The translations under genes were made by a program, and so were the position numbers. A DNA stretch of 63,085 nt, filler included, from Hausera hauseri (taxonomy: Eukaryota): NCBI GenBank assembly GCA_046269625.1. It is 10 parts of 10 records of this genome, joined end to end, with 100 filler letters (N's around TTAATTAATTAA, not from the genome) between each part and the next. Parts side by side here need not be neighbours in the genome. Positions count along the whole stretch, not along the records: positions 1 to 6,058 come from JBJURY010147090.1; 9 more parts are not named here. One strand, given 5' to 3'. Positions 1-51,636 of the stretch are shown one piece after another. Under the pieces are notes generated by a model, which worked only from the letters and a program-made list of their open reading frames with translations, made no database searches and was not told the origin of the DNA. The stretch's first letter is position 1; each line of letters begins with the position of its first letter.

Positions 1-118
1 GTGCGTGCGTGTATCATTTTTTCTACCCCATGACTCATCCGCGAACCAAACTTTTCCTTCTTTCCGCGGGGGGGGGGTTGGTTTGGTGCGCTCACATCCC
101 CCTACTGACGATCCCTGT

Positions 119-1760
119 AAAAGGCTGAGAAAAAGTATTCCATTACTGAATTAGAAACCTCACCCGTTTAAGAAGCACTTCGACATTTTAGCGTTTACGC
201 ATACGGAGAGAAAATCATAATTGTTACTGATCATAAAGTTGTCACAACCCTGAAAAGGCGGGCAAAAAATACCACCTGTAGGCTGAATAGATGGTTTGAA
301 GAAATTTCTAGATATAATATTGAATTTCAGTATAAGCCTGGCAACAAACACGTGGATGTCAATGCACTATGGAGACTAAAAACCAAGACAAGTGTAACTA
401 CGGTAATGAAGAAAGCTGAGCTTGAAGAATTAATAGACTGTGAACGCGCTTTGACGTTGGACAAAGCACTGAAAATCTCAACCGATCAGAAAAAGGATAA
501 AGTTGTCCAGCAGATTATGGAATTTTCTAAAGGGATACAGTACCGAAAGGACGACAGCTTAAGAAACATTTATGCAGTCATGTACACTAATATTGTGTCT
601 TGAACCATAAAGGCCACGAAGACATTTTGTATTATGTACGGAAAGAAAGGAAATTAATAGTCATTCCAAAAGGCTTACGCACCGAAGTTTTAATGGCAGA
701 ACATGATTCATATTTAGCAGCACACATGTCATGGAAAGAGATGCTGGAAAGAATATTAAATAAATACTTTTGGCCCACTATCTATATTGATATGAAGAAT
801 TGGATAAATGCTTGCAATGTATGTGCAACTAAACAGAAAAAGACGAAAAATTATGTGGCAGAGCAAAAACCAATTGCCGTACCAGACAGACCTATGCAAG
901 CCATGTCAATGGACATTATAGGACCGCTACCTACGATTCACAAAAATAATAAATATATCCTAACTTGTATTGATCGATTAACTCACTTTGTCAAATTGGT
1001 AGCGATAACCGATCAAAGACAGAAACATTGGCAGAAGCTGTAGTAAGAAGAATAATTTGTCGATATTGGCCCCCATATCAAATACTGACAGATGGTGGAA
1101 GAAATTTTACCAGCGAATTGCTTGAGAAAATTATTAAAATATTTGAGATTGAGCGGTTAACAGCCACTACATACCATCCTCAATGTAATGGAATAGTTGA
1201 GTGAATGAATGCAACTGTCATACGCATATTATCCACAGTAGTAGCCAAGGACCAAAAAGGTTGGGACGAATTTTTAGTAGGAACTCAATTTGCCATTAAT
1301 ACAACACAACATCCAGCGACAGGATTTACACCATTCTTCATGATGTATGGACGTGAAGCTGTGTTACCCACAAGTTTAGAAATGACACTATACACGCTCA
1401 ATCCCGAAGATTTTAAACAAAATTTTTTGCAGAAGTGCTACAGACGCGATTGAAAAAATGTTGGGAATTTGCCAAAGAATTGTTTCGAGAATATCAAGAG
1501 CAGTTTTAAAGGCAATATTATAAAAAAGTAAAACCACACGATTTAGAACAAGGAAATTGGGTTTATGTACATTACCCAGTAGCTAAGAAAGGTACGTCGT
1601 TAAAACTGACTCGTACAGGCAGAGGACCATATAAAGTTACTAAAATTACGCCAGCTACGGTGTACATCAACAAGTATGGAAAAGAAGACGTCGTATCAGT
1701 ACAGAGAGGCGTTAAGACATATATACGACCCAATAAACGTTACAACCTACGACAACGAGA
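119..1760 (+). pseudogene. pol: Gypsy pol: RNase H C-terminus plus integrase (zinc-binding, rve core, GPY/F), with stops and frameshifts
   Basis: EHDSYLAAH..YFWP..CNVC (ORF 600-1043), SMDIIGPLP, ILTDGGRNF, YHPQCNG (~1170), TGFTPFFMMYGRE, RGPYKV (~1621). Confidence 0.92.
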
Positions 1761-1764
1761 GATG

Positions 1765-3200
1765 AAAACTTCTTTAATAATTGCTAGACCGATATCATAC
1801 ATTCAGATAGTTTTAGCACTGTCGTTAATTGCTTCTTATATCCCAAAAGCACAAACTCAAGGGTGGAATGATGAAACTACCCTAGGAGACGTATATGGAA
1901 TTCGGAAGAGTGGATTAAAGCCGAAAAACATTATAACGGAAAATAAACCAACGCCCGAAGAGATACAAAAACGAGAAGGCACTATTTTGTTACAACTAAT
2001 GAAGGTTCATTACTTTTTGCCCGACACTGTGTGTGCTGGATTTAAAACTTGGAGACCGCATCACAATTTTGGACGACTTCCAGTTGTACTATACGATGTA
2101 ACACCAAAGAAGTAAAAAACTGAGATTTTGAACCCGGAGATTACACACAGTGCTGCGACATAGATTATTGACATATCTACATCTTTACTTATCGACTGTA
2201 CTTACCAGACTCATCAGAAGTTTATATCGAAGTAAACCAACAACTTCAGTTAGTTATTCCCACTTGGACTAGACGATTCGAAATGAAACTCAACGAAATT
2301 CTACAACCCACCGACCCAAATATAAGGCTATCAGATGAAAACATCAAAAGAATTCAGTAAATAAAGAAAAACAGTGCTTCCAAGTAGATGCTCGAAGAGG
2401 ATTAACTCTACGTCAAGAAATTAGTATCGTTTTTGAAACAGTAAACGGGAAAACACCGAAAATTGAATATTGTTCTGTTCATGCCGGTGTGCAACACCCA
2501 TGTTGTAAGCTACCAATAAACCAAGAATTCAAAATAAGATTTGACTTATATCAAGTACGACCGAAAAAACGGAGCAAACACTTTCAAACATATTACCAAG
2601 AGAATAGAATATAGAGGATTCCAATAGAGACGACAACGAAAAAGCCAACAACTCGAGTTAGCACCATTACTCAAACCGTTACAACAGGTAGTGCACCTAA
2701 AAGAAAATTAGAAAGTGTACCTATCAAGTATTCGGGGCATCGATTTAGAATTGTGTTCTTTGTAGAAGAAAAACTAAATTACGATATAAATATAAGCTGC
2801 CGAACAACGTATAATAACCAAATTGTAACATTACTTAAAAACACTTAATAGACAGAATGCAATTTGTTAAAACCGCAATCCGATTACATAATACACGTAT
2901 ATGCAGAGAATAAACAAAACCAAACAATTACATTGCGTACCTTAGGTGAAATTCGTGCAGAATCGCATATATACGAAAACATAGACGATGAAATCACAAC
3001 TCCAGTCACCATGCAAGTAACAATGGGATTAACCACTTTACCGATAGTATTAATTGTCGTACTATCAAAGTTTGTTCTCATTATATTAATTGCGATTTTT
3101 CGGTTAGTTGCCAAAAATTGTCATTCTAAGCGTACTAAAACTACAGAATGAGAACTAAGGGAATTAGAAACCTCTATTGATCCGTATGATAAAATAACCT
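1765..3200 (+). pseudogene. Retrotransposon-borne type I membrane protein with signal-like segment, Thr-rich stalk, fibronectin type III-like domain and TM helix
   Basis: Hydrophobic IQIVLALSLIASYIPKAQTQ in frame with the integrase tail; LKPQSDYIIHVYAEN (FN3 LxPxxxYxIxVxAxN pattern) and TM LPIVLIVVLSKFVLIILIAIF in ORF 2864-3151. Confidence 0.6.
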
Positions 3201-3314
3201 GACAACTACAGAGCGGGTTATTCTATCATCAAATAAAGGATTGGTTATATTTCAAGACCATCCTTTATTGTAAAAGTAATCCTTACTGTTTATTTTTCAG
3301 ATTAGAGTATTCAC

Positions 3315-5911
3315 ATGGCCGAGCGATGCAGTATCGACAACCAACCAAAAGGAACAAGTCAAGAATTTCGATATAGCATCGACGAGTTTCTTCAGAAATA
3401 TGCCCCGTCTTCCTCCCAAATTCCAAATCCATATATCGATAAATTTATAACGAATTGCATGAGAAAACTTTAGTAAATTACGATCAGACTAGTAGAATTC
3501 CCAATAATTATAAGGTATTACGGAAGAAAATAGAATTGTCTCTCTCTGCGCTATTCGAAAAGACAAGGATGCCCGAGCATACTAACTCAAACAGATGATC
3601 ACGTACGAACATCACCAAAGTTTTATATCCACCTGGCAGACGGTGAGATATACTATTGATTCAAAGATCAAGAATGGAACGCTAATAACGGAAGGCAATA
3701 CAGATTTAGTACCCTTAGCCTACATAGCGGAGATTTGCATCACTATGAGTTAGAATTTCGAGTAGCTGCCCATCTTGTCAAATTGATATTCGAGGCGACT
3801 TACGATGACTATCCCTATATCCAACAGCCACCTTTGAAATTCTATCAACAACCGTCAGAAAAGGATTCGGACACATTCTTACAATCACATATACTAGTGC
3901 AAGATGCCAGAAATACAAGAATCATAGTAATCAATTGTGGAGAAGGGAATGATGAGCAATAGATTCCAATGGAAGTCTCAATTCGATAAGCGAACGGAAC
4001 AGAAGTATATTGTACGATTATTAGCCCGAGAAAAAGAGCCCGCGAGACATACTAGGATACGACAGGAATTCGCAATGAAACACTCCCGAGAGGTACAGAC
4101 GTCAAACTTGTCCAGGTCGAGTTAGAACATTGTTTATATGGATATATCCTCGCTGGATATCACGTCGACAGGATTGCTGAATTACTGGAAATACAAAGCT
4201 CAAGCATCGTAGGAATGCGTGAGATAGGAACACACCCGGTAGTCGCCGAGCAAACTAAACGAATATTGCGAGAAAGAAATTACACTGTGCCGAAAGTTAT
4301 GGATGCCTATTTCTAGTTAATGGTCGACGCCATGAACAGCGAACATGTTAAGATTAGCAAACTGTTAACCGCTAGTCAATACACTCAATACTTGCGCGAT
4401 AATTACGTTGCTTTAAAATGGGACCACGAATGGATACCCAGCAAACCATAACAAAACATACGAAGTTCGTCATATCCAAAAACTATAAACAAAAAGTACC
4501 GGAAGCAGTACCGTCCAGATTCCCCGTACAGGATTGTTGAACCTATGGCACAGGATGATGTAATGATAAATATTCGGAAATCAAATCAAACATGTACCGA
4601 TGTGCCCAGCTCCACTTATAGTTCCCACGACAAATCCAAATTACCCATTGAGAAACCGACTCCGAAACTGGAATCAATAATCAAAGGGATAGCCGCGACT
4701 GAGACATTCAAAGTTCCACAAGTTCCACAGAAAAAGCAGAAAATTGAACTACAAATTCCAGCGGTTAAAAAAAAATATCTCTCTACGACTACTTGTTTAG
4801 AAAGAAAAGCAAGACCGTAAAAGGTAGCTAAAGGAACGAGCTCAACCCAGGTACAAGAAGATCGAACTAATAAAACAAACGAAGACCCCGGAATTTCGGA
4901 GACAAGAACAGCAATCCCAACGACATCCGCAAATAACCAGATGACAATTCTAATCTCAGAAAAACCCAAGAGATCGATACAGAAATACAAGGACCCAGAA
5001 GGCAGATTTAAACAGCTGTTCGCGGAAATTAATGTGCTTCGGAAAAGGAACTACCAGGAAGATGTGCATTTTGCAACAACTAAAGATTACCCGAAAATGC
5101 TAGTGACCACCGAATATTATAGTCACCAAAAAATTAAAGAGGTGATGTTTTTCGTTAAGACCACACCAGCACGAGAAGTTTATGAAAACACTTACATTTG
5201 GAAAAAGCCTAAAATAGGGAAATATATTGCATCAGTTTTTCAGTCGAAAAGAAACGGCAGGTTAACAGTGCCAGTGGACAAGGAAATGAAAGCTTTGTTA
5301 AAGAAACTATATCAAAAGTATCAAACAGATGGTGAAATTCCCGATTTAGATCGAGATACCATCGTTGATTGGACATTAGTATCAGTAGGTTGTGACCCCA
5401 GAAAAAGTTCCGTAACCCCAAACAAAAGAGAATCCATGGTTATCTATACCAAGATAACTATGGCCTGTATTTGAATCCATCGAAATCACAATAAGAGTAA
5501 ACTTAGATGATGAGAAATGGGACAAAGATTAGAACAAATGCCCAGTATGTGAAGCGAACCTCAAACAAGGCTACGTCCGTCCTAGATAACCGCGATTTTC
5601 GACACAAATATTGTCGAGATTGCTTGGAGAAATAGACATTAAACGATGGTTAAACCACTTGCCCCGTGTGTAGAGCCGAGGCAACCGAATTAAAATATTT
5701 TTCGAATGGTAGTTACACCCGTGTAGGCCGCATAAAATCACATTACAGTTATGAATTAGAAACGTATTTCCGAGAAACGCAGCCTAATACGGACGCAGAA
5801 ATGGATTTACGTCGACGAATAAATCTCCTTAGACAACTAGATAATGGAGTCATTTCTCTTCACGAAATTGGCACATCCGAGGATGCCGCTCAGGGAGGAG
5901 ATATGTTGTAA
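3315..5911 (+). pseudogene. Accessory ORF (~860 codons, broken) ending in a C3HC4-type RING finger
   Basis: Continuous A-rich coding-like sequence from ATG 3315; at ~5539-5680 CPVC...FRHKYCRDCLEK*...TTCPVCR. Confidence 0.65.
5892..5903 (+). promoter_or_regulatory. Polypurine tract (plus-strand primer)
   Basis: AGGGAGGAGATA directly before TGT. Confidence 0.7.
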
Positions 5912-6058
5912 AGACGTTCAAAATTTGTAAATACTGTTATAAGCAGCATGTTGTAAATAATTATTATTTTATGGCATTTTTTCATTATTGTACAAAATTA
6001 GAAATTTTAATCGACATTCAACTAGTTAATTAACTAGTTATTAGACTTGTGCATTGAA
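5904..6058 (+). repeat. Start of 3' LTR (truncated by contig end)
   Basis: Begins TGT right after the PPT; sequence switches to AT-rich non-coding. Confidence 0.6.
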
Positions 6059-10160: not shown

Positions 10161-10500
10161 TCAAACCAGAAAAATTTTTATCGGGATATGATCGACAAAT
10201 TTTTTTAGCAGAAGAGTTTTACCGCAACCTTCTGGACCATAGAGACAAAACAGGCCATTAAATTTTTTCATTAAAATTTCCGACAATTTTGTTTCGATTT
10301 CATCTAAGCCGAAGAGTGGTTCAGGGCTTGCGCCATTGTAAATAAATTGAATGGGTGTCACATTTGATATCCTGAAATAAATATTTTCTACGTTGGAATT
10401 TTCATAAATAATGTCATTCAATTTTACTTTGGTTATTGTAAACTTGGTAACGCCATTCTTGGTCATCAATTCATTATCAAAGCGGAAAATCTGGACCCGC
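10161..10500 (-). pseudogene. P-loop (AAA+-like) ATPase fragment
   Basis: LFGLDEIETKL..FCLYGPEGCGKTLLLK (Walker A after a hydrophobic strand); followed by stops, Walker B not seen. Confidence 0.5.
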
Positions 10501-11480
10501 CTATGTGCCCGACTCGCCGGCAACGAAAAACCCGGCCGAGTTATGTTCCTTAGTGACGCCAAGAGTACGCAAGTGTGCTAATGAGGTGCGTAAGAAGTCA
10601 CTGGGTTTTTGTGTGACCAGTGCATTTTCGTTAAAGATGCGTTGCATTATGGAGTCAATTGAAGGTTCGGTCTGTTTTAAGACAGCGTCGAATAATTGGG
10701 TATAAGGGTCAGAATGTTGGAAGATGTCTAGCAAATTATGTATGGAGGCTTTTATGGAGTTTGGGAGAAGATAGAGTAAGCTGTGGGCTTTAGATAAGGA
10801 GTCTGTGATACCACTAGACTGTAGCCAGAGTTGATGAAAGTAAATCCACGTTTTACTGGACTTTTTATTATCTATGAAGTATTCAGTGCAGTGTGGAGTA
10901 TTGGTAGGATTTTTATGGGATTTGCATCGACTAAAGAAAGTAGAGGGTTTGGTTTGGAGTAGTAGAGAATGGGTATTGGCTTTTTGTGGTGGTTGTATCC
11001 GTGGTGTCAATAGTTGGTGGGGAGTTCATTCCACCATGGATACGGAGATGTATATTGAAGCAAGCATGATTTGAAAAAGGAGGTAAAGTCTCGTTGAAAT
11101 GTATGATGGTACCGTGATGGCTAAGATAGAAGTCAGAAGAACCAAGGGTAGAAGAAAGGTTGGTCTGAAGGATGGGGATATGCGGGTGTGTTGTATGAAG
11201 GGTACATATGTGAATGTTATTATAAAAGAAGAGAATGGAGGTGAGGGCAGTGGTGGGCCCGGGGGCGTGATTAAGGGCCGACATTGAAGACGCCCCCCGA
11301 CCGACCGGCGCAGGGTTAGTGGTCGGGACCTCCGCTTTAACGTGGCGGGCAGCAAATTGCTGGTGGGCCGAATTTCCCTTCAGAAATTTAGCGTAGACTG
11401 CCGATATGACATTCAATAAGAACAAATTACTAACGCCATAAGGTCGTGGGGATATCGAGTTGAGAATCTTCTGCTGCTGC
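10500..11480 (-). mobile_element. gag: Gypsy (CsRn1-like) 5' leader and gag fragment
   Basis: W..GITDSLSKA..DPYTQL..QKPSDFLRTSLAHLRTLGV matches the gag at ~41500-41950 (KPSEFLQTSLTQLSTLGV). Confidence 0.7.
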
Positions 11481-11501
11481 AAAAGAAATCACCCTGCTTA
11501 C

Positions 11502-12069
11502 CGATACTGATGGTCGTTAAAGTGGATGGTATCGATGACACAATCGGTGCGCCGATTTGTTGACCGGCACCAAACCCACCAAATGTCGATTATGTCTGTG
11601 CATTGAATCCGTAGCATGTTGTTGATAAATAGACGAATAATTCTGGTTTATTCGTCGCATTGCCGAATAAGTTCAATGTGGTACCAAACGTTGTATATTG
11701 TGACTTCTGTTGGTTACCAAACTACCTTGTTGAGGAAACTCTGACATTCTGTGTCGCTGCTGGAGTCACACCAAAGCTGCTATGTGCAGGAAAAACGCTT
11801 GGTTTCGATGTGACTGATTGTTTATCTTCGTCGATTTTCACGGTCCACTTCGAAATGTGCAAATTTAAATCACTGATGAGCAGATGCTGACTACTAAATA
11901 TGGGGTCGAGTATTGTCGAACTACTCGCACTATTGCTGGTGCTACTAATGAGAGTGGGAAACATAGATGTAACTGGCACAGGTGAATTGGAATGTTCGTT
12001 GCTAAAGGAGTGGCAGTAAGATGGTAGTCTACCAGGACCGGTGACTATGACTTTTCGAAAGCATTTCAC
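11502..12069 (-). pseudogene. Ser/Thr-rich FG-repeat (nucleoporin-like) exon remnant
   Basis: Read-through gives SFG, FG, TFG, LFG, TFGGFG with two stops; ends at a G|GTAAGC donor-like site. Confidence 0.35.
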
Positions 12070-12472
12070 TTGCAGCTTTAGAAATAGTTTTGTAAATACA
12101 TGCCTGTTGGTGTTTGTCGTCTAGTAAATTCTTTCGTTGTGACCACATTTTTATGAGAATGTTTTCAAAGTCAGGAAATACTCCAACGATTTCCATTGGA
12201 GCTAAGGCGGCAGTGAACAAAATCAATACTCCGCAAATAGAGGAACCGTTTATGCGTGAAATAGCAATTGGTTTTGTTATTGACCTTTGCGGACGATAAT
12301 AGCCGCATAATTCAGTAGCAAATTATAGAAAATCTTTATTGGATTTCGGAAGTTTATTTTTGACATTGTTTACTTGAAAGTGCCATACACTCTTAGACTG
12401 CTTAGTTTTTATGTTTCGCACAAAGTTGCTGTCTCGATGTTCCAACAATAATTCCAACAAAAACAATTTATA

Positions 12473-24974: not shown

Positions 24975-25400
24975 GATAACAGACGATTAAATGATAATAA
25001 CCGAAATCGAGGTTTCGATAATAGAAACGCCCATAATAGAAATCAAAGAAATGATAAAAATTTTAATAATCGAAGCACATACAACTCGTATAATAAACCG
25101 AATTACAGTTCAGATAGAAACCAAAGTGGTTACCGACCTAACGTTAAATACACTGATAATCGAAGTAACGAAATTCGATATGACGGAGATTATAGACAAA
25201 TGTTACAGGGTCAAAGTAAGAATACAAACAGAGCGAAATCGCCCGTGAATGAGGACGGCAGACAAAGGATTTGTCGGAATGGAAATTTAATTTGCTTTAC
25301 ATGCGGAAAAGAAGCTCATATTGCTAGGTCATACCCAAATCCTAGAAGTGTCACATTTACTGAACCAAACAAAACACGTATGATTAAAAATAACTTAGAA
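24975..25400 (+). pseudogene. gag: gag nucleocapsid region: N/R-rich stretch and zinc knuckle
   Basis: GNLICFTCGKEAHIARSYP (CCHC knuckle, last Cys mutated). Confidence 0.8.
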
Positions 25401-28199
25401 GCCATCTGTGGTAAACGAGGTGATATAAGTTTGATCATTGAAATGCAAGATCTACGCAGATCCGTAAGAAATCTATGCGAAACTACAAACCCTCAAATAA
25501 TGAACGCTAGAAAAGAATACGAAAAGAAATTACGATTGATGGAAGTTTATCATGGATTAAGAGAACCACAAGCTGAAGAAGAATGGGCACTAGCACCAAA
25601 TAATACTAATATGGCGCATAAGAAATCTATTCCGCAAGGAATAGCACAGTCGGAGAAACCACCGACATCTCAAAATGTAGAAATAGAAGCAGTAACACAT
25701 AATCCAGATGAAACAACGGATGAAGTCGAAAGTGAATTTATCGGACCCTTAGTTCTCAAGATAACGAAGAATATAGGTAGAAGCCCATCGCCTAAGAGAA
25801 AATCTAAGACACGATCACGATCGCCCATTAAAAGGGATACAGAATAAAAAAGAGATTTTCATACTGCTATCCTAAGAGATGACTCGCCCTTAGAGATTTC
25901 TATTACGCCTATAGGGATTCCATAAGTGTTAGAAACGCCAGAGATGATAAATGTTAATGACGAAATAAACGAAATTTGTCCGATTCCCGCTAGTGAAGAA
26001 GAAACGGACGATAATAATGATCCGGATGCGAGAAAATGGAAAGTTCGACGTTCATGGAAAAATGCTGATAAATTAAAGAGGATGAAAATTAAATGTCACA
26101 ATCCAGAAATACTCCGACATAATTTAGAAAGGCTTAAACAAATCAGTAAACAAACAGATATATCGGGTAAGGGATAACAGTTTGCGGAGAAATTATACCA
26201 ATGTTTAAAATTATGCAGTGAAGGGCAACTCGATAAAGCAATTGAAGTAATACAACCGGAAGAAGAACCACGAGATACGTTGATAAAATGGAACCACGAA
26301 TTAGAGTCATGGATTAAAAGTGGAGTAGAATTTTCGGAAGGATAGAGTAAGGACGAGGATAGCGTCGACATAAGAGTCGCTGAAGCGAAAACATTACTAT
26401 CCAATTTAGAAGCAAATCCCAAGTTGAAAAGAGTAACACGCAACTTAGAACGTAAGATGGACGAAATACGTTATATAATGATAAATCGGCTTAGAGAAAA
26501 ACAGGTTAGCAATAGAAGTAATATCGATTTAGAAATATTGTGTATAGACCCTATGGACATTCCTCCTTTAATAGAGATGATAAAAATGGCCTTTGTCGAA
26601 AACAGACGATGTGCAGACTTAAAGAACCGCATCAAAGTGGAGAATGAAAAAAGATCACAGATCAATAGTTTAAGAAACCAAATTATGTTCCCAAGCCATG
26701 AGGAAACTCAATACGTAATGGAAGCTTGTATCGCAGAACTGGACGAATATAAGGACGAGTTTAGTTATGTCGGTCGGATTATGACTTTCCTAAGAGGACC
26801 GGACGATAAGTTAAAAGATGCGTATAAGATGTTAGATAAGGCTATAATGGCGAAACCAGTAATCGCAAATTAATTGTCGGAATGGTCCGAGCTAGTAAAC
26901 CGACTAAGCAAATTAGTAGAAGACCGAAAAAAAGAATTCCCGCAAAGTGAACCAATGGTAAAGAAGCAGGTAGAAGAAAGTGCACATAATCTAGGCACAA
27001 TGCGAATAGAAATAGATATCCGTAGCAAATTCAAAGCATTAAGAGGGTTAAAATTTATGAAAAGAGAACAAGAAATGTCAACATTGGAGGAGATCTATAA
27101 ATTGATCGAAGAGACGAACTTCACGGAAAAACGAAACATGATTTATGATGTAAACTTAAAGTTAAAGGTTGCTCGACTAGAAAGAATCCAATACTTAACG
27201 GTAAAACTGCTCGACAAAATATCAGCACAAGACACTGAAATCTTAGACATCTGTCCCGGACATCGAGATACGTTAACAGATGCCATAAAATTCTTGCATA
27301 AACCATAAGAATGGATGACCGGATCGGATCAGAATTTTCATACCAAGTTGACAAAATTAAGAGGCGACGTACACTTCAGCTTTCACGAACACAAGTTCGC
27401 AAAGAAATTATCGGATGCAATGGACCCAGACTCGAAAGTCATAAATAAGATATACGAGTTAGCTTATCTCTTGGTAGAAATGGCAGAAATTAGTAATGAG
27501 AAATGAGGCAATTGATGCCCAAGATACAGAAAGTAGAAGAAACATGTACTAAAACCAAACAAAGAGCAACAAGGTTGGACGAACTAACGAAAGAGCTTGG
27601 AGCTTATCGGAACAAATATGCTTTTACTGAGTCAGAGATCAAAAATAAACGAGAATTTATACAAAGATGGCAAAGAAACGTAATTATTGAACTAACTGAT
27701 TATCATCAAAAAGGATTCATTGATTTTAATGGATTAGGCTAACTACTAAAAAAGATTCAGTACGCTTGTGGGAACAGAATAGGTTTCCGAACTACACATA
27801 TGAAAGAAATACAACCAATGCTGAAAGAAATTCGAGAAAATGTGCAAAGAACAAACACAGCTCTAATAAACTGTGGACTCCCAGATATTGGGAATGAACC
27901 AGAATGGGATGCTTACTTAGAAGAAATAGCGGCTGAAAAACCAGTAACTCCAGTACATTTAGAAGAAATAGAAAGGTATCCGCAGAACAGGAAATTCAAT
28001 GTAGAAATGCTCCTCGACTCAGCATTAACCGAGAAGGACATGATGGAATCAGTTAACGTGAACATAACTGAAAATAAGCTCAGAGAGCTCATTCCGACCT
28101 TAACTAAATTATCTAGCGAGAATACAATTTATAACATAGTGCCAAAACTCCTTATAAAGAAGTATGCGAATATTCTGAGAACTTTACCTGAAGTAGTGA

Positions 28200-28420
28200 A
28201 GAAATTAATGATATCATTCGACTAGATAAAAGAAAAAGAGTGTGAAATGACTACTCATTCCTACGTAAAGGATGTAAGAGAATGGTTACTGAACAATGGC
28301 GGAACAAATGAGTTAAATTACAGATTTTACTTTAGAGGAAGAATACTCGACGATTTAGAACAACTAATAGATGTCGGAATCATTCCCGGCGAAACAAATC
28401 GGATAGTAATAATAATAGCC
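28200..28420 (+). pseudogene. Ubiquitin-like domain inside the retroelement polyprotein
   Basis: VKDVREWL..G....YRFYFRGRILDDLEQLIDVGIIPGET.IVI parallels ubiquitin [38 protein letters not shown]. Confidence 0.7.
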
Positions 28421-29109
28421 AACGAACAAACAAAAGAAGAAGACACGCGGAAGGCTAAAGCGGAACACTGTGCAGGACAAATCCTGGGAGTACGAGACGC
28501 AGCAATGTATTTTGAGTACTTACAGACGGATGAAGACAAGGAACAATACAAGAATCTAGTGCCATTAAGTGTACTGCCACCTAATGCTCCAAAACCGAAA
28601 CGACCAGTATGCAGACCTAGGAAGCCCCGAGAAGAAATCGACTATAACGGAGAACTAATCAAAGAGTTAAAACAGATGTCAATTCCCACTTTTAATACAT
28701 ATAATGAAGAATTAAGAGAGTTGATGAGAAATTTAAAACGTATCGTAAATTATTCGAGTCTCCGTGGAGGTACATTAGATGAAAAAGAGAGGGAAATGTT
28801 TAACACAGCTAGAAAAATGAGAAGTTCTCGTTTCAAACTGTCTAAAAGTAGTCTAACCGATGATGTAGTAGTTGAGAAGATCATGGTGGAGAATACGATA
28901 GAAGAGCTAAGAAAAGTATTATTATACTTGGCAATAAAGACAAATCCAACTCGAGAAAATAAACTAAATCAAGCCATGAGTTTGGCACGAAAGGCATCCA
29001 GGAAACTTCCGTGTGAAATAAACAGGCCAAGTGTGGTAACAATAGACTTGAAGACGCCTTACGGAACTTGACGACAACAGACAATATCAACAAGAAGAAT
29101 CAATCAAAT

Positions 29110-31039
29110 TTGTTAATCAGTTTACTCACTATAATGATGTTAATAAAGCAGATGGGTGCTGTCACCGTCTATGATTGTGATAAATTCAAGCTTGGACAAA
29201 AATATTCACTAAGACTTAGAAGCATGGAAAGATGCCAAACCACACAAATTGGAAACAAAAGAAAAGAACTACTTCCTATACCAACAACAAGAATTCATAT
29301 CTCTGGACGGCATGGAATGTATGCTGACACGATCTCGTAGCATTTTTCACTGCGGGTTAATGCATGGACACTCCTCGATAATTAAACCAACAACCCCTCC
29401 AATTCCAATGAATTTAGAAAGACAACATTGCAAACAAGTTTGAGGAACTCGAAGACTGAAATGGGATAGCATGGAATTAGAAATGCAACCCGGAAAAATA
29501 ATCAGAGCATATAAGATAGTAGCCGGAAGACTAGATCTGCATAATGGGCACTGTAGTGGACCGGAATACGATACCGGAAAAGGATTGGAAGAAAACGTAG
29601 TCATAGTAGACTTTTACGAATCGGAAATGCGAGTTCAGAAAGTAATGTTCCATAGTGTCACTAAGCTATATATAAGAATAAAAAATGTCACATGCAAGAC
29701 GGAACTTGCGCCTTCAGAAGTTCTGTCGTCATATGAGAACCGCCCACTGGAAAGGCCTGTAATTTTATTAAGATCAAAGAACTAAAATTTAACGGAAAAC
29801 GATACGTAGATAAATCCGACATCAGTTCAAGAGCATGTGAGGACGTATCAGAGCATCATACACCTACGATATTAATCTCTGATCAACATGGATTGAAATT
29901 CATAAAAAAGGAAATGATTTCGCGATGTGAAGTAGTAATGTTTACCACTAACTACGAAGCGTTCTTCGTCGTAGAAACGGAGATAAACGCGAAAACATAC
30001 AACTTAGAAACACAAGATATTAGAATTGAAGATTATCTGAAAAACCGAGATGATTATTTTTATTATAAAGGACAGGTTGGAATAGCAGAACTATACCACA
30101 AAATGATGACTAACGATTGCAAATTAGATACGGAAATCATGAGGACAAAATTAGCCCTCATTTATGCAAACCTGGAATTAGCCTCACCAATTATTCCCAT
30201 AACAGAAGGAATTTTTGGCCGGGTTACTGGTGAAGTTCTACTGACTTATGAATGCGAGAAAAGAGATGTACCAATTAATGTTGAAGAAAAACGATGTATA
30301 CAAGAGTTCCATGTAATCTACCAGAATGCGCCACGTCTAGCCATGCCCCTCAATAGAGTGTTGCTTGATAATGCAACCCAACCCACGATTTTAAAGGATT
30401 GTAAAGCAAGTTTTGGCGAACCAATGTTTAGGCGTAGAAAAACGGATTGTGTTAACTTACCCAATGGAGCTGTCACTATTATTCCTAAAAACTAACTGTA
30501 ACTAATTTAGCAAAAGGAATTACTGATGACAAGTTCCAGGATACGTCTCAAAAAGGCATTTATTGACCAAAAGAGATCGACGCTTTTCGACAATTTCTCG
30601 CTTTTCCACGACAGCGAACACACGAATTAAACCGAGCTATGGCATCATAGTAAATGACACCCGTTATTAGACTAAATGGGAATCCTTGCTTGGCGCGAAC
30701 TATTACCAACGAGTAACCACCGAAATACTCTGCAAAATATGGAGAAGATTTTTAATTTTTGGACAAGCTGCATCTGGATTCTTACCGATCTATTTTATAG
30801 TACAACTAGTAAATGCGGTAATCCAAGCGGTTATAAGCGGGTACGAAATATTTACGTTAACAGGATTTTCCTGTAAGATCTTAACTGCAATTGTCACACC
30901 GTTAGGCAAAATGCTCAAAGCGTATGAGGAAAATCGATGGAAAAATGACGTTGAACGCCATGTCGGCTATTATAATTACAAACGACGAGCAAGACCCATG
31001 TTTCGATTGAAACACAAGGTTAAAAAACAAATGACGTGA
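29110..31039 (+). pseudogene. env: Chuvirus-like (class III fusogen-type) envelope glycoprotein
   Basis: Signal-like LLISLLTIMMLIKQMGA then VYDC; ECMLTRSRSIFHCGLMHGHSS; LYHKMMTNDCKLD; GEVLLTYEC; CIQEFHVIY; TM IWRRFLIFGQAASGFLPIYFIVQLVNAVIQAVISGY..GFS..ILTA, matching recalled chuvirus G motifs. Confidence 0.8.
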
Positions 31040-31272
31040 AGAAACAATTCAGATGATGATGAGCCTAAGGGAGGAGAAGTAATCCTAGGACCAAATAGAC
31101 ACAAAATGTGTTCAGTAATCAAGGCACCTTTGCCCATCATGCCGCCAACGGCTCCAATATACGAAGATTGCGACAGAACATCTATGGTGTCATATAGACT
31201 GGCATTCTGTCAGAAACCTTTTAGCTATAAAGATCCTTTTAAGGAACAAAACAATACGGAGTAATTAAGAAA

Positions 31273-32523
31273 ATGCAGATCACTAACCAAAGACAAGCGG
31301 AAGATGACCATGAAATATTGTACTCACCGAGAATAGCTTGCAATATAAAGACAAAACCAACAGTCTGGGGAACTCCAGGAATGAAATCGTTCCAAAATCC
31401 GATAGTACAAGTACCATTAATTAGAAACAATGCGAAAAATATGGAAGTTAACAACTTGTACCCTAACGAAGAACTGAAACAGCTGACCGAAAATATTATT
31501 TCATCACCAGAAATAACAATAAACGGACATAAGATTTCTTCGATTAAACTACCAAAGGACGTGTCAAGTTGTTACGGGTCAGTTATGGAAGAAAGACCCT
31601 TCGCAAAAGTTACCATTAAAGATGGGGAAGTCTATGCCTTAATAGACACCGGATCGGAGAAATCATTTATAAAATTAGAATCAATACTGCCGACACTACG
31701 AAAACAACTGCAGACAGCATCATTATCAGACCCCGGCAGCATAGGAGCCTTCGGGCAAGAATCCAAACCAAAATTTAAATGGAGACCCTTGGTCCAGTTA
31801 ATGGGTCAAATTCCTAGACACGAGTTCGCCCTAATGGACCAACATACCGATGGCATAGTATTAGGATATGATATACTGAAACAATTACCTAATATCGCAA
31901 TAAATTTACAGATTGGAAAACTACTTGAAATTGGACCAGTGAAAGGGATTAAAACAATGAAAGAAAAGAAGCAAGGAGAAGTATGGATTCCTGTCGACGA
32001 AAATATTCCGCCTAAAACCGGAATGCTAATTTATGCTCAAATCCGCAAAGAGGATGACCAACTAGTATATTTTGAACCACAAGAGGACGTAAATCCAAAT
32101 ATCATACTTAGTAACATTTTGACAAGAGTAACGACAGGAAGAGTACTAGTCAGATTAGTTAATAACGCACCAATCTCTGTAAAATTGTACACCAATACTA
32201 CGTTGGGTCACACTTATAAGGTGTCAGCAATAATAATCGAAGAAAAACCATATAAATATGCTGAATTTCCACCTCATGTTGAAACAAAGTTTTCGCGGGA
32301 AGCATATTGCCAATTTTACGAACTACTATGCAAATATAAATCAATTATTGCCCAAAATGAAGAAGACATAGGTAAAGCGAAAACCTTAAGATTAACCATT
32401 CCATTAAAAAAGAAACTTGGCTCCAATGATGAAATTGAATTGGAAGAGCAAAAGATGTTAAAATGGTCCTCACCGCCACATTCGTTAAGGCCGGAAATAA
32501 CAAAAGCAGTAGAACGTGTGTAA
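31273..32523 (+). CDS. pro: Retropepsin aspartic protease and spacer domain
   Basis: VYALIDTGSEKSFI and GIVLGYDIL; open 416-aa segment of a broken polyprotein. Confidence 0.85.
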   Translation: MQITNQRQAEDDHEILYSPRIACNIKTKPTVWGTPGMKSFQNPIVQVPLIRNNAKNMEVNNLYPNEELKQLTENIISSPEITINGHKISSIKLPKDVSSCYGSVMEERPFAKVTIKDGEVYALIDTGSEKSFIKLESILPTLRKQLQTASLSDPGSIGAFGQESKPKFKWRPLVQLMGQIPRHEFALMDQHTDGIVLGYDILKQLPNIAINLQIGKLLEIGPVKGIKTMKEKKQGEVWIPVDENIPPKTGMLIYAQIRKEDDQLVYFEPQEDVNPNIILSNILTRVTTGRVLVRLVNNAPISVKLYTNTTLGHTYKVSAIIIEEKPYKYAEFPPHVETKFSREAYCQFYELLCKYKSIIAQNEEDIGKAKTLRLTIPLKKKLGSNDEIELEEQKMLKWSSPPHSLRPEITKAVERV

Positions 32524-33524
32524 AAAGCTGACATAATACGACCAAGCTATCGATCTTGGTACTCACCAATACTCATGGTTAAGAAAAAAAGGTATCACTA
32601 AACACCGGTTCTGTATAGATTACAGAGCCATAAACACACTTATGATGAAAGACTCATGTTCACTACCATCAGTAAAAGAAGCTCTAGATAGATTATCAGG
32701 AGCAAAATGGTTTACCACACTGGATTTACAATCCGGATACTGGGAAGTGGAAATTAAAAAAGATGATCGTTATAAAACAGCGTTCAAGACACACGACGGA
32801 GTTTATGAATTCAACGTTATGTTATTCGGTATAACAACCGGCCCAGCTATCTTCACCAGGATGATGAATAAAATGTTAATGGGACTTGATCATGCGTTCG
32901 CATATTTAGATGATGTAATGATAGCATCAAAAACAGAAAACGAACATCTAAAGGATATCGAGGATACTCTTATGCGATTGGAACAGGCAGGATTGAAACT
33001 GAACCAAAAGAAATGTAAGTGGGCACAAAATGCTGTATCTTATCTAGGACATATAGTCGGAGAAGAAGGGTCAAAACCAGATAATTCTTTACTAAACAAA
33101 ATATCGAATTGTATGGAATCCCAGAACCAGAAAGAGTTGCGACATTGATGAGGCCTATGTGGATATTATGCCACTTATCTGCCAGATAATTCAAAAATAA
33201 ATGCACCATTATATCTACTATTAAAAAAAGGAATCAAATGGAAATGGACCGATGCTGAACGAAAGGCGTTCGACGAAATGAAAAATATTTTAACAAGTGA
33301 ACCAGTGTTGAGATACCCCAATTTTAATTTACCCTATATAATTAAAACAAATGCAAGTAAAGAAGGGATTGGTTATGAATTGGCCAAAAAACGAGAAGAT
33401 GAAGAATTGGAGCATCCGATTGCATATGGAGGACTGGCGATCAAGAGGGCCGAGAAAAATTATTCAGTAACTGAACTAGAAACGCTAGCTGTAAAAGAAG
33501 CCTTAAGGCATTTCAACATTTACG
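32524..33524 (+). pseudogene. pol: Gypsy reverse transcriptase and RNase H
   Basis: RFCIDYRAIN, WFTTLDLQSGYWEV, KTAF, AYLDDVMI, IKTNASKEGIG, PIAYG..AEKNYSVTELE. Confidence 0.95.
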
Positions 33525-33624: not shown

Positions 33625-33835
33625 GTTGCTGGAAAACCAATCCGGCGAACCGTATGCTTTTTCGAAAGGCAGTGCAATCGCACAAATCGTTTTTCTTCGC
33701 TATGAAGAGGCGGAATTCAGTGTAATGTCACCGGAACAATGGAAACTGTTTTGTGTCAATGAATCGACAACACGAAATAAACGCAAAGAATTCGGCTTTC
33801 GTAATATGACAAAACCACCTATGTTTAATTTGTGA
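33625..33835 (+). pseudogene. dut: Trimeric dUTPase, C-terminal part
   Basis: LENQSGEPYAFSKGSAIAQIVF (motif IV-like) and TRNKRKEFG (motif V-like). Confidence 0.7.
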
Positions 33836-33903
33836 TAATAATAATTAGTTAGTTGTTTGCTTGTGTTATAAACAAAAATGATTTTGTAAAAAAATGATAA
33901 TTA

Positions 33904-34346
33904 ATGGCGACAGGATTTATAGATGATGATAATGGACGTCGGTAACATTTTCAAACCGCTTCTATACATATTCAAGCCCGATATTGTGTGGAAAGACCTG
34001 ACAAAAAGCGAAAATTACTAACGGATTTCTCTTTCGACATCGTCACGGACTTCATTGGTATGAAGGCAATTACATTTTATGTGCGACGTGTATTATGGGA
34101 GACATTTATGATCGTTTTGACATTGAAAATACCATATTTTACATTAAAGATCAAATTGAAGGACAAAAGTTTACACAACTCCATTCACAGTTTCCCGAGT
34201 TGCGACTGACGACGCATTCAACAACATCAGATAGCTCGCTAGCGATGGTACCTGACAATATCCGATGTCAGTATCGTGATCATGGACCGCATTGTGCTTA
34301 CAAAAAATGTTTACGGCTTTGTATTGACTATATTTCATGCAAATAA
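33904..34346 (+). pseudogene. Small Polinton-associated exonuclease-like protein (copy 1)
   Basis: YIFKP..W..L..FLFRHRHGLHWYEG..FYIKD..K..C.YRDHG.HCAYKKC across frameshifts. Confidence 0.55.
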
Positions 34347-34792
34347 ATATATACGTATTTCTCTGTTTCTTCTTTCTTTCTGTAAACAAGGTTCGTATTG
34401 GTCAACTGAATAGTTCAAAACTAGTGTATGTATCATTGTGATGAGACAATATATATCTTTGTTGTGATATAAGACAATACTTACAAAGTAAATGTTTATT
34501 GTTTACAATGAAAACAAAAGTTGATTTAAATATGGATGTTTTTTCATTTCACTTTGGCTCTGAAATGTCTGCACAACAAAACAACAGCATCTACAATAAC
34601 AACGACACTTCAATTGTGGCAGGTTGCAGTAAGTCCATTTCATTTTTACTTTTTGTCCTTAATATGTATTTATAATGCAACAGTGAGTACAAGTACGGCC
34701 CGTATTCCCTCAGACAGTCCAGAGTGTATAACGGGTACAGTCTACATTTCCTGCGAACCCCCATTCTAGTGAAATTATCAACACCGATCAAA

Positions 34793-35092
34793 ATGAACCA
34801 AGTAAAATATGGCCTGTTGACAAAGAAACTAGGTGACAGTGACTTTGATGCATCGGAGGAAACGATGAAGAAAGTGGTCAATGATTTGATGTTGTCCAAT
34901 GATATTCGGGACACATCCTCGCTTTTCCTTAAAGGCAACATGGCGAAAATCGTGCGTGCAGGTGGACAAACAGCAGTTTTGCCAACGGAAGGAGTAAAAG
35001 GATACCTGACAATGAAGCTGAAAGGATATAAGGAATTGTTTCGTATTAAATCGCCAATGTGGAAGTTGGGGAAGTTTACCCTAATGAATTGA
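34793..35092 (+). CDS. Hypothetical protein of the Polinton-like element
   Basis: Open, coding-like ORF MNQVKYG..SPMWKL.. followed by AATAAA; no recognised motif. Confidence 0.45.
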   Translation: MNQVKYGLLTKKLGDSDFDASEETMKKVVNDLMLSNDIRDTSSLFLKGNMAKIVRAGGQTAVLPTEGVKGYLTMKLKGYKELFRIKSPMWKLGKFTLMN

Positions 35093-35409
35093 CTTTAGTT
35101 TTTTAATGTTTTTAGTTTATGATTTGTAATAAAATTTATTTGAGTTTTTGTGTTGTGTTATGTTGTGTTGTGAAAAGTATCTGAGATTTTGAGTAATATG
35201 AGATTTTTTTTTCGATAACCCAACTTAGGCCACATTTCCATGTTATAAAACAGAAGACAAAAACTAGTGTACAAATACGTTATTGATCACGTGTACAGCA
35301 GATGAATGCAAAACAAACAAAAATCACAAATGTCAATGATCTGGCTGGTCTGAATTGCATCTTTGTACTGACTGAACTGTTTTGTTACTGATTGAATAAT
35401 GAACGTGTG

Positions 35410-38116
35410 TTATCTTAAGCGCCAATGTCCGTACGCCCAACTTTTATTTCTCCCCACCCACTTTCGCTTATCATCGTTGCATGACAAAGCAACCTTTTTA
35501 TTTGTGATGGTATACAGCTGGTGCTCAATCGATCGTATGTTCGTTTGAGACACAACAGCCGTTCCTCCTTCTCCGTCATCTTGTCCATCATAGACACGGA
35601 GATAATCACCGTGATTTATTTCCGTCTGTTTCAGCTGGATGCCTTTTGCCCGCATTTTCGGCCCACAGTCTGTTAGAAGACTGTAACACTTTGGGCACAA
35701 AAATATCCATTCCTTGTATTGAACCCGGCCTTCACTTTCGTCCTTGAAGCAGTCGATTTTGTTTGTTACCGCGCTGCTGTACAGTGAATGGTCCGGTGGG
35801 TAGTTGGACGCGTCCAGTAGTCCATCTGACATCATTTGTCGGAGCAGCTGGTCTCGATTGATGTTTTTCAGATCAAGAAAGAAGCTGTCTGTGTCACCGG
35901 CAACGACACTGATCTTACAGTCGCCGCTGCCGCCGAACATTTTCCGGTAACGTGCCAAGTCGCAATATTTGAGCTCGTACATTCGCAACTTGCTCAGATC
36001 CAATACCACTTGTCCAATGTAGCTTGGCCGGTCCAGTACGACTTCTTCCCAGTTTAGAAGCACGGCGACCAATCCATCGGCAATGTGCATTGACCGTCTG
36101 AACTAAGCCTTGCTGGTGTACGTAACCAGTCGTTTTTCGTTGTTGGACAGGCGCACATTGAGCCGCTTCTTCAGATTTTCCACTGTTTTCCCGTCCAGTG
36201 AATTGTTTTTGAGCTTGTAATAGTCCTTTTCGAACTTTGTACAAATTGCAGCTCGTTTCCCGGAATTTCCATCAATGTATGCCTTGAATATCGGCACCTG
36301 ATTGAAGCGGATTGCACGAATCAGCTGTGTGACGCGTACACCGAGCTGCATGTAAAACTGCAGCAGACGCCAATGAACCACGTAATTCGATTTGGGTTCA
36401 TGTGTTATGATCTGTTTCTTTACTTTTGAGTAGCCGGGTAGACATTGGCTAATTGGTGCGACCGGCAGTTCATCCAGAAAATCATGCACCTCATCCGGTA
36501 CCACGAGATCAACTTCCATTAGGTAACAGACTGAGCTGCTTTCTGTCGTGTTTGCTGCTTGCAGACTGTCCACCAATGTATTTCGTTCTTGTTTGTCCAT
36601 TATCCATTCAAATAAACCTTACTGCAAAGGTTGCGAAAGCGCCCAGCCGTTCGGGTTATTAATATCGATGTACAACATTGACGTTGTATCATCGTCATCA
36701 CTGTTTACGTGATGCTTCTTGACAAATGTCATGCCGCCACGAATGCCAACGTCAAACAGTTGGTATATTCCCGGGTCTTGTAGCAGCTCAATGTCTCGAT
36801 CTAGTGACATTAGTTCCGATGCCCAACTCATTCCCGGTATTGAGTAAAAGTTGAGCGGTTCCAACCTATCTTCATCCAACGCTTTAGCCCAAAATGTCTG
36901 AAACACATTGGCTAATAAGTACACATCGAGCTTTAGATACTGAAGCATGTAGTCCAACATGTTTCTACAATTGAGCTCTGTTCAAGATTCCTGTGCTCTG
37001 TGATATTCATCTTCTGTGATACCTGTCCATCGCGGCGGTAATTCCTCTGTCGTCCGGAGTCGCTCATATGACACGGCAAAGTCATACGGGAATATACCTT
37101 TGCTCCGTGTAATATGTGTGGGAACTGCGTCATTGCTATCGACACATCCGGCAAGGCATTTACCAGCTTCGCCAGCGATTAATTGAGAAATTGCAATGAA
37201 TCGAGGAAGCGTACCTGGAACCGGTTCATGCGTGCCAATAGGGAGAGGTACTTTTCCATCTTTGTTGGGATTATGGATAGCTCCCAGTGCGGAAATCCAT
37301 TTACGGAGCATTTCAGAATATGGTGACAGTCATAACCCCTGAAGTTATGCTTCTCCCAAGTATTGACCAGTGAAATGATCGTGATCCGATACGAGCCGTT
37401 CTAGTGCGTGAAACGGTAATATTTTGTGACACAGGTAACATTCATCGGTCGCAGAGAACATCAGCTGTTCATATTCATCTGTCCAAATCAATGGTTTAGT
37501 GAAATTATTGCGATAGTACGGCTCTATTTCCGTTTCCACTATCGTTTCTAAACGCTGCAGGAAATCACGTACAGAGTTCCAGCCGTGAAAGGCGTAATAC
37601 GGCGGCTGACTGACCGCTTTTATTGGGGCAACCAACATACAAACGGCAATTGGAACGTGTTTTTGATCATACTCGTTGTGCCGTGGTAGAATTGCCTCAA
37701 TATCGGAATATATTATATATGCCAAACTGTCCGTTTTTGACCAGTCACTGAATCGGAAGCTCCTTTTTGAGTGGCATGACGTACATGGTTGTTCCCGTTG
37801 AATTCTGCTTGCACAGCGCCACATGTTTTTCCCATGCTGCCTTTGACCTGAAACCACGCAGACATACAGGACACCATATACATTGTATACGCTTTTGGAC
37901 AAACTGATGGTGATCCATGTTCAACAGTCGGTCCAAATTGGTCACTGTCATGTAACGGAACTTTTCTTTTTGTTCCAGCAGTAACAAATATATTGGGCGT
38001 CCATTGCGTTCCGACTTTGATATATTATGTCTACATGGGGGTTCTTATATATCTCTTCGTTTGCCGGTATTTGTACAATTGTATTGTACCGCAACACATT
38101 TATTACCAGTGTTGGA
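35410..38116 (-). pseudogene. Protein-primed family B DNA polymerase (Polinton/adintovirus type), nearly full length, degenerate
   Basis: CPVC..H..C finger, IIYSDIEA, DHDHFTGQYLG, KGIFPYD, YLKLDVYLL, GIRGG, YIDINN..GWALSQPL, YYKLKNNSLDGKTVEN, GDTDSF, FKDE, PKCY, DDKR. Confidence 0.93.
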
Positions 38117-38216
38117 NNNNNNNNNNNNNNNNNNNNNNNNNNNNNNNNNNNNNNNNNNNNTTAATTAATTAANNNNNNNNNNNNNNNNNNNNNNNNNNNN
38201 NNNNNNNNNNNNNNNN
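38117..38216. other. Artificial contig spacer
   Basis: 44 N + TTAATTAATTAA + 44 N. Confidence 0.99.
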
Positions 38217-38435
38217 CGAAATACAATATTTTACGTAAAAGATCAAATCAACGGTCAGAAGTTTACGCAACCTCACTCCTAATTTCCCGATTTGCTAATG
38301 AAGACATATTCAACATCGAACCACTCAACAATGGTGGTATCTGACAGTATTCCATGTCCGTATCGTGAATATGAATTGCATTGTGCATACAGAAAATGTT
38401 TAGCGCTATGTATAGACTATGTTTCACGTAAATAA
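38217..38435 (+). pseudogene. Polinton-associated exonuclease-like protein, 3' part (copy 2)
   Basis: NTIFYVKDQINGQKFTQ..CPYREYELHCAYRKCLALCIDY, homologous to 34127-34346. Confidence 0.7.
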
Positions 38436-38734
38436 ATATACATATTTCTTTTCTCTTATGTAAATAAGGTTCATGACGCATTGATATGTTGAATTGTTCA
38501 AAATTATAATAAATGTAGGTTATAAGATTAATATTTATGGAAATAGTAGATCAGTTGAAGCAATTGCAAAATTTTGATGGGTTATTAATTTCAGAGTTGG
38601 TACAATGGTGGCAAGTATTTGATAATTATTTAGTTGTAAGAGCAGGAGATTTGGGATTTAAAGAAGATTTGAAAGTAGAAATGGTCGAACACGCATTGCT
38701 AAATTACATTAATTACACTCAGTTCTAGATATCA

Positions 38735-50896: not shown

Positions 50897-50970
50897 GGTT
50901 CTGCTGCCGGTCTGTGCAGGTCCAGGGTTCTGCTGCAGGTCTGTGCAGGTCCAGGGTTCTGCTGCATGTC
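50897..50970 (+). repeat. 29-bp GC-rich tandem repeat, ~2.5 copies
   Basis: GGTTCTGCTGCAGGTCTGTGCAGGTCCAG starting at 50897, 50926 and 50955. Confidence 0.9.
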
Positions 50971-50974
50971 CTGA

Positions 50975-51561
<587 letters not shown>

Positions 51562-51636
51562 TGAGGGCGCTACGGAGATTAGTTGTTTTTAGTTCGCTGA
51601 TGGAGCGTTTTTTTGTTGTTTTTTTGTGCTAACTCG

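Follow-up and report, generated by a model that had tools for sequence, protein, structure and literature searches.

Two contigs in a stretch of Hausera hauseri DNA are probably decayed copies from a single Ty3/gypsy lineage, each belonging to one of two sister families. In this lineage a gB-type envelope glycoprotein (Env) is placed between gag and the protease. After the integrase, both families likely carry an FN3-type membrane protein and a 3' exonuclease-like ORF. The basis of this reading is the domain order on each contig, the same overall order in the intact natural ORFs L003, P0007/L001, and L005, and the homology of A's FN3-like domain and 3' ORF to modules of these elements.

Contigs, relatives, and search material

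The window, meaning the whole stretch of 63,085 nt, is composed of 10 contigs with N/TTAATTAATTAA spacers between them. Contig A occupies positions 1-6058 and contig E positions 24975-33524. Both are decayed, with many stops and frame changes. Their coding strands are A-rich, with A at 0.38 and 0.40 (contigs A and E) vs 0.28-0.33 in 4 other mobile-element stretches of the window. The original prediction had pointed to this common coding style and to internal signal peptides on both contigs, and a signal-peptide-like stretch lies inside each.

The pol domains are of gypsy type and follow the Ty3/gypsy order PR-RT-RH-IN, with PR-RT-RH on E and RH-IN on A, and they are nested among gypsy polyproteins in trees. 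Env (PF24664, three pieces), protease (PR), reverse transcriptase (RT), and RNase H (RH) on E, and RH and integrase (IN) on A, score above the Pfam cut-off. The ubiquitin-like domain (Ubl), FN3, and RING each score below it within the window, and each is backed through relatives.

The comparison panel is composed of 120 listed gypsy polyproteins of 1,566-4,986 aa, found with E's RT/RH. L001-L005 are the best 5 of 80 metagenome-contig loci fetched with E's RT alone, and all come from one metagenome. In run X1, 25,891 contigs match E at an identity of at least 80% and together leave none of the 30 bins empty; this is a single run, and its depth is no measure of copy number. Of E's words, 0.29 are present in it. 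E is a member of a large, multi-copy repeat family. Scans of viral contigs, and of metagenome contigs with the tail alignment, found no relative.

Contig E runs from gag to RNase H

The features of contig E are as follows.

24975..25400, plus strand: gag, C-terminal part, its zinc knuckle decayed (PF00098 at E 0.037, under the cut-off; Asn/Arg-rich stretch as in the gag of P0007 and L003, by eye)
25400..28190, plus strand: charged spacer, probably helical, ~900 codons long and poor in stops (4 stops/526 codons, 2 stops/523 codons)
28193..28420, plus strand: putative Ubl (PF00240, E 0.014, below cut-off)
29107..29160, plus strand: internal signal peptide predicted for Env (P0007, L003, and L005 have the same pattern at this place)
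29161..30940, plus strand: gB-type (chuvirus-like, class III) Env, in several frames (PF24664, E 1.8e-6, 1.8e-16, and 5.6e-15)
31145..31156, plus strand: late-domain-like PTAP motif, located behind Env in the cytoplasmic stretch (shuffle p 0.05; 2 of 3 relatives have a similar motif here)
31588..31887, plus strand: aspartic protease (PF00077, 21.1 bits, cut-off 20.7)
32582..33058, plus strand: reverse transcriptase (PF00078, E 2.5e-35)
33245..33523, plus strand: N-terminal part of RNase H, truncated where the contig ends (PF17919, E 8.8e-28)

Env lies between the zinc knuckle and PR, which gives E a GAG-ENV-POL layout, and is 25-39% identical to the Env of P0007, L003, and L005. The Ubl is the top match in the window to a profile built from relatives (iE 0.017), and the best 60 PDB matches of a joint Ubl profile are all ubiquitin-fold proteins. 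Folding E's Ubl as a single sequence gave a low-confidence model (pLDDT 55) with no Foldseek match. An atlas comparison of the Ubl ORF (0.80-0.85) placed ubiquitin clusters at ranks 12-26, which serve as leads only. Homolog searches with the Ubl ORF and the Env piece, run among longer proteins only and so weak as evidence, returned nothing.

The 900-codon spacer has no Pfam family above cut-off and no match to L003, L005, or P0007. Neither a profile of the helical module that precedes Ubl in relatives nor, in a weak test, a two-sequence profile of the Bcl-2-like stretch of L003/L005 matched E. A dUTPase-like label for the spacer between PR and RT was dropped for want of Pfam support.

Contig A carries an integrase, a second membrane protein, and a 3' ORF

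The features of contig A are as follows.

1..118, no strand: unrelated DNA, with A's copy 5'-truncated here (29% identity to E upstream; protein matches of relatives begin at 109)
119..400, plus strand: C-terminal half of RNase H, of which 123-198 is common with the end of E (PF17917, E 3.4e-8)
591..1760, plus strand: integrase in several frames, with zinc finger, core, and a C-terminal part ending in a YxLRxR motif (PF17921, E 1.6e-16; PF00665 pieces)
1792..1860, plus strand: internal signal peptide, predicted in the frame of the integrase C-terminus (hydropathy 1.95; equivalent hydrophobic stretch after IN in P0007 and L002-L005)
2750..2923, plus strand: FN3-like domain of the second membrane protein, with two in-frame stops (relatives' profile, iE 1.1e-7)
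3044..3094, plus strand: predicted transmembrane (TM) anchor of the second membrane protein (hydropathy 3.2)
3407..5908, plus strand: broken 3' accessory ORF, colinear with the intact 870-aa protein P0003 (tblastn, 35-44% over 3407-5908)
3846..4448, plus strand: DEDD-family exonuclease fold without the catalytic acidic residues, likewise in intact P0003 (profile and alignment)
5539..5671, plus strand: RING finger, frameshifted and with stops (C-terminal half PF00097, E 0.002, below cut-off)
5892..5901, plus strand: candidate polypurine tract (10 purines, 2 nt, then TG, read from the sequence)
5904..6058, plus strand: candidate 3' LTR start, truncated where the contig ends (begins TG after the purine tract)

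The integrase is 32-45% identical to ORF1 of L003, and P0007 is its best match among the 120 listed proteins (325 bits vs 280). The YxLRxR motif at its end is common to A and all five relatives. The FN3-like profile was built from 9 domains that follow the signal peptides of L002-L005; on the window it matches A at iE 1.1e-7 and its next best match stands at 1.1. When the joint profile was compared with the PDB, all 17 matches were FN3-bearing proteins, though weak (best E 0.0034), and Pfam fn3 reaches only E 0.11 on A's domain. The single-sequence fold of this piece was of low confidence (pLDDT 53), with no Foldseek match.

A search of A's tail against 1.84 billion proteins returned P0003, from a 16,242-nt contig, as the sole match (E 1.4e-60). 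The exonuclease fold is supported by a profile of 7 accessory ORFs of L001-L005, which matches A at 3846-4256 (iE 1.6e-10) and P0003 (iE 5.7e-20), and residues 246-331 of P0003 independently match DnaQ (E 8e-4). In the alignment, the four acidic catalytic residues and the general base are missing from A and from intact P0003; they are present in 5 of the 7 accessory ORFs of L001-L005 and missing in the other 2. The A/P0003 domain is thus a member of the DEDD fold and likely not an enzyme, as judged from these residues. A conserved domain is also seen between the exonuclease fold and the RING, at window 5090-5432 (P0003 590-740).

The RING at the end of P0003 passes Pfam (30.8 bits vs a cut-off of 21). 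Its C3HC4 pattern, that of RING-HC E3 ligases, is complete in P0003 and broken in A. The tail had earlier been described simply as a RING. A RING does stand at its end, intact in P0003, but it is not bare: most of the tail is an exonuclease-fold ORF that had been missed. ORFs homologous to this tail are separate in all five close loci, so an arrangement with one ORF running through to the RING is rejected, and A's tail ORF was likely separate from the polyprotein too. The start of the 3' LTR can be given as a candidate only, since the window holds no second copy of it; no LTR pair was found in L001-L005 either.

Contigs A and E overlap in RNase H but are not one copy

The overlap between A and E is identical at 55/76 nt (blastn E 1.4e-5) and, as protein, at 18/26 residues (BLOSUM score 98). 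Scored against A's overlap, E beats all 120 listed gypsy polyproteins, the best of which reaches 15/26 and a score of 73. An unusual motif is common to the overlap of A and E, and the best panel rows carry a different one. The description of this RNase H segment as similar but not identical was accurate.

The original prediction had also held that A begins where E ends. The segment is indeed the same, but the two contigs do not join. Upstream of the overlap, 123 nt of A are 29% identical to E in an ungapped comparison, which is the chance level and indicates that unrelated DNA interrupts A's copy near 109-120. The 26 codons of the overlap comprise 9 identical ones, 9 with silent differences, and 8 that encode another residue. 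The silent and replacement changes point to two families rather than one copy, and a single copy is rejected on the 9 silent codons together with the unrelated first 118 nt of A. The predicted size of at least ~14.3 kb, with E's 5' end missing, is arithmetically right (8,550 + 5,790 - 76 nt).

A wider version of the same idea is that A and E are parts of one family or one copy that was split by assembly. Both contigs do break within the same 76 nt and are alike in base composition, which speaks for such a split. It is nonetheless very improbable, as their 72% identity is below the 80% or more at which the run X1 contigs match E, and the silent codons and the unrelated start of A count against it as well. 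On these sequence comparisons, the one-copy or one-family reading appears largely refuted.

A joint quick tree pairs A and E

Trees were built from 24-61 rows chosen from the 120 proteins and 80 loci, with near-duplicates left out, and their supports are SH-aLRT values from quick trees with long branches. E's RT/RH is sister to P0007 (89) or, in another tree, to P0007 with L002-L005 (91). For A, the RH tail and IN take the sister position to P0007 (92) or to the P0007/L002-L005 group (91). In the joint matrix A and E pair at 98, a value that rests on 26 columns because A and E have only 26 alignment columns in common, and the pair groups with P0007/L002-L005 at 93 on a long branch. RNase H/IN phylogenies had been proposed as a check on kinship, and in these quick trees A and E are the nearest rows of each other. 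In the RNase H block, A and E are 72% identical, vs at most 40% between A and L001-L005. The nearest intact relatives are only 42-45% identical in RT.

One of four trees placed A outside the group. It included a partial control row, taken from a gypsy element on contig G, and this row was left out of later trees. C-rich gypsy elements of a different lineage are present at window 41500-45900 (contig G) and 10500-12300 (contig B), as IN and RT pieces.

The instability of A in that one tree would fit a reading in which A and E are unrelated gypsy elements, their overlap is a motif of all gypsy RNase H, and A's tail is host or foreign DNA. So would the 18/26 identities that E itself reaches with unrelated panel proteins. 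Such a reading is hardly credible against two results. E is A's best match by 25 score points over the 120 listed proteins, and elements fetched by E's RT alone have modules homologous to A's FN3-like domain and tail ORF.

Intact relatives carry the lineage's domain order

P0007, found in a search for long proteins with E's RT/RH, is a single ORF of 2,871 aa. It is composed of gag, a signal peptide, Env, PR, RT, RH, IN, a second protease-like domain, a signal peptide, an ectodomain, and a TM segment. It has neither Ubl nor spacer, and its ectodomain after IN does not match the FN3 profile (iE 1.4). L001 is 99.6% identical to the 3' half of P0007, and L001 ORF2 and P0007 are each on a 13,479-nt contig.

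L003 has a natural single ORF of 3,703 aa, composed of gag with 2 zinc knuckles, 2 Ubl-like domains, a gB-type Env, PR, RT, RH, IN, a signal peptide, 2 FN3-like domains, and a TM segment; separate ORFs come after it. L005 is similar, plus an FN3/TM module between Env and PR. This extra signal peptide/FN3-like/TM module of L005 (L005:2-10279) is accompanied by protease-like domains and keeps the predicted membrane topology. L002 and L004 begin within pol, and in both the IN is followed by ankyrin repeats and FN3-like domains. A second protease-like domain is found in the L001-L005 families either after IN or before PR. The helical module directly before Ubl is a free 3' ORF in L004 (L004:10906-11517) and occurs twice in the polyprotein of L003 (ORF1, ~residues 520-910); it may resemble the TFIIS N-terminal domain.

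Env precedes pol in 2 of L001-L005, and the other 3 start inside pol. The signal peptide/TM pair after IN is found in all five, as are 3' exonuclease-family ORFs, one or two in each. Three of these ORFs pass Pfam RNase_T, and the alignment places a His before the last Asp (DEDDh-type). In L002 and L004, active and dead exonuclease paralogs lie in tandem. The RING pattern is found in none of the five, and L003 extends 3.2 kb beyond its last ORF.

The original prediction had proposed a giant lineage of the form gag-Ubl-Env-PR-RT-RH-IN-FN3/TM-RING-LTR. This holds at the level of the lineage, as P0007, L003, and L005 are single ORFs that have Env between gag and PR and a second signal-peptide/TM protein after IN, and L003 has both Ubl-like and FN3-like domains, but not for a RING in the same ORF. 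A copy with both Env and RING had been named as the thing to look for; no contig carried Ubl/Env plus RING, and none did so among L001-L005. Likewise, of the proposed combination of Ubl, RING, ESCRT motifs, and two membrane proteins in one element, Env and the second signal-peptide/TM protein do occur together in single ORFs, but the RING was not found alongside Ubl/Env.

Whether E's own family ends in an A-type tail, including the RING, bears on this combination, and we lean modestly towards the view that it does. The competing account keeps one lineage with different cargo: E's family would have Ubl and Env with no RING (an active exonuclease such as those of L003 and L005 could stand at its end), A's family would have a RING with no Ubl, and no element would have the full toolkit. 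This is rather unlikely, though it draws on the missing RING in the five close loci, on P0007 with its Env and no Ubl or spacer, on the varying module content of L001-L005, and on the separate families of A and E. Module shuffling is indeed extensive among these elements (0-2 Ubl, a Bcl-2-like stretch by eye, ankyrins, 0-3 FN3-like domains, 1-2 exonuclease ORFs), and sister families can differ because modules are shuffled freely. Against it, Burro1 carries Ubl and RING together (as described in parts of PMC6431247 and PMC13465017). A shared cargo is also the simpler reading, since A and E are far closer to each other than either is to L001-L005.

A model of the polyprotein and the 3' ORF

Hydrophobic stretches form signal/anchor pairs in L002-L005, and after IN in P0007. 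We infer from these pairs that Env and the FN3 protein would be lumenal and Gag and the enzymes cytosolic. The single long ORF would be threaded through the ER membrane, with each internal signal peptide and TM anchor bracketing one lumenal module, first Env and then the FN3 protein. Gag and the enzymes would remain in the cytosol. Signal peptidase and the element's own protease could then release the parts of the polyprotein. Env is a predicted fusogen that would fuse membranes, and the FN3 protein may be its attachment partner or a receptor decoy.

P(T/S)AP or PPxY motifs stand behind Env in 3 of 4 elements, namely E, P0007, and L003 (shuffle p 0.05, 0.02, and 0.09), and not in L005. No late-domain-like motif was found in the gag-side stretches of these four. 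This placement suggests that ESCRT could be recruited through the Env tail, where the motifs would promote budding. The dead exonuclease fold of the separate 3' ORF might serve to bind nucleic acid, and the RING found in the A/P0003 branch might act as an E3 ligase against host RNA-defence proteins.

Fusion and attachment proteins work in pairs in herpesviruses and paramyxoviruses, and gB-type fusogens usually need partner proteins. To our knowledge, envelope-bearing gypsy elements have been described with Env alone. The strongest form of the model is a lineage of invertebrate endogenous retroviruses whose single polyprotein supplies a pair of membrane glycoproteins, the gB-type fusogen ahead of pol and the FN3 attachment protein behind the integrase. 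To these it would add a dedicated counter-defence ligase, a 3' pseudo-exonuclease-RING that would recognise small RNAs, or complexes containing them, and mark host silencing factors with ubiquitin. Taken as a whole, this form is speculative and unlikely.

Other sequences in the window

Window 50900-51600 (contig H) holds part of a PI3K regulatory subunit gene of vertebrate type; the piece is GC-rich, its introns are short, and its SH2 exon matches p85-alpha at E 8e-25. The DNA joined to it is AT-rich and carries a MATH domain (50247-50699) along with fragments of DNA polymerase B and of a gypsy RT. The PI3K piece resembles host DNA, probably from a fish, set within mobile DNA of an invertebrate, or else the join is chimeric. 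Genes for protein-primed DNA polymerase B, decayed and presumably of the Polinton/adintovirus type, lie at window 33625-40000 and 48140-49245 (contigs F, G, and H), and contigs F and G are 75-80% identical over ~1.1 kb. Window 51737-58102 (contig I) is a satellite array with a 147-nt unit, ~42 copies, and 82% matches.

Comparison with known systems

The closest described elements are the planarian giant gypsy elements Burro/GYPSM1. As reported in the part of the source available, they have a long ORF with gag, an Smc-like coiled motif, a Ubi2/SUMO-like domain, Bcl-2, an in-frame Env, and PR-RT-RH-IN (Arkhipova and Yushenova 2019, PMC6431247). Burro also has a RING (AIR1; RING+BIR in Burro1), ankyrins, and a high copy number (parts of PMC6431247 and PMC13465017). 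The likeness includes the long ORF with gag, the coiled motif, Ubl, an in-frame Env between gag and PR, and the PR-RT-RH-IN that follows, as well as the RING, the high copy number, and the ankyrins, which are here found in L002 and L004. On E itself, Ubl comes before Env and Env between gag and PR; the reading frame is continuous in L003, whereas the E copy is decayed. The domain set had been called unrecognised. That claim is rejected, as the text of PMC6431247 already gives Burro a Ubl, a RING, a coiled-coil (Smc) motif, and an Env placed between gag and PR.

The elements also differ. Those described here are ~14-16 kb and Burro is over 30 kb. A's RING ends a 3' exonuclease-fold ORF, whereas the Burro RING is given as lying within IAP. 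The text of PMC6431247 names no post-integrase FN3 membrane protein or exonuclease. Pfam and profile searches found no BIR, MATH, ankyrin, or Bcl-2-like match (all Burro modules) in A or E, and no Burro protein is among the 120 listed long gypsy polyproteins. E would work like a small Burro, and membership is not claimed since BIR, Bcl-2-like, and MATH modules were not found.

GAG-ENV-POL errantiviruses with an HSV/gB-type Env are known from Platyhelminthes, Bryozoa, and Nematoda, according to the portions of the report consulted (Chary and Hayashi 2026, PMC13524379). They share with the present elements a Ty3/gypsy pol, a gB-type Env before pol, and a multi-copy state. Compared by eye with supplement 2 of that report, the N-terminal half of Env in E and L003 is closer to the Schmidtea than to the bryozoan rows. 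Together with the layout, this likeness makes a flatworm the likely host. The reported elements are intact, whereas A and E are decayed, and the main text of the report, in those portions, mentions no RING, ubiquitin, fibronectin, or accessory.

The bdelloid rotifer LTR retrotransposons Vesta and Juno have a DEDDy exonuclease as ORF3, and small TM-bearing ORF3s as well (Rodriguez et al. 2017, text of PMC5408684 in part). A DEDD-family exonuclease as a 3' accessory ORF is thus common to them and the present lineage. The type differs, being DEDDy there and apparently DEDDh in the relatives described here, with active and dead copies in tandem in L002 and L004 and a dead copy with RING in A and P0003. 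RING, fibronectin, and ubiquitin are absent from the text of PMC5408684 that was available.

Anakin, which Dezordi et al. 2020 reportedly described, is said to be a mosquito BEL/Pao element with a chuvirus glycoprotein. It resembles the present elements in having a chuvirus-like glycoprotein in an LTR retrotransposon and differs in being BEL/Pao, where these have a gypsy pol with Env before PR.

Within the text of the literature covered, few subscription papers among it, no report was found of a post-integrase FN3 membrane protein or of a dead exonuclease-RING fusion. The FN3 membrane protein after IN and the pseudo-exonuclease-RING are apparently the unreported parts of this lineage, and Ubl, RING, and the in-frame Env, already known, only extend what is published for Burro. 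The conserved second membrane protein after integrase is a candidate partner of Env that can be tested in intact L003 and L005, and the dead-exonuclease-RING fusion is a concrete candidate for countering host RNA silencing. With five families of giant GAG-ENV-POL-type elements, intact L001-L005 are better study objects than the decayed copies in the window.
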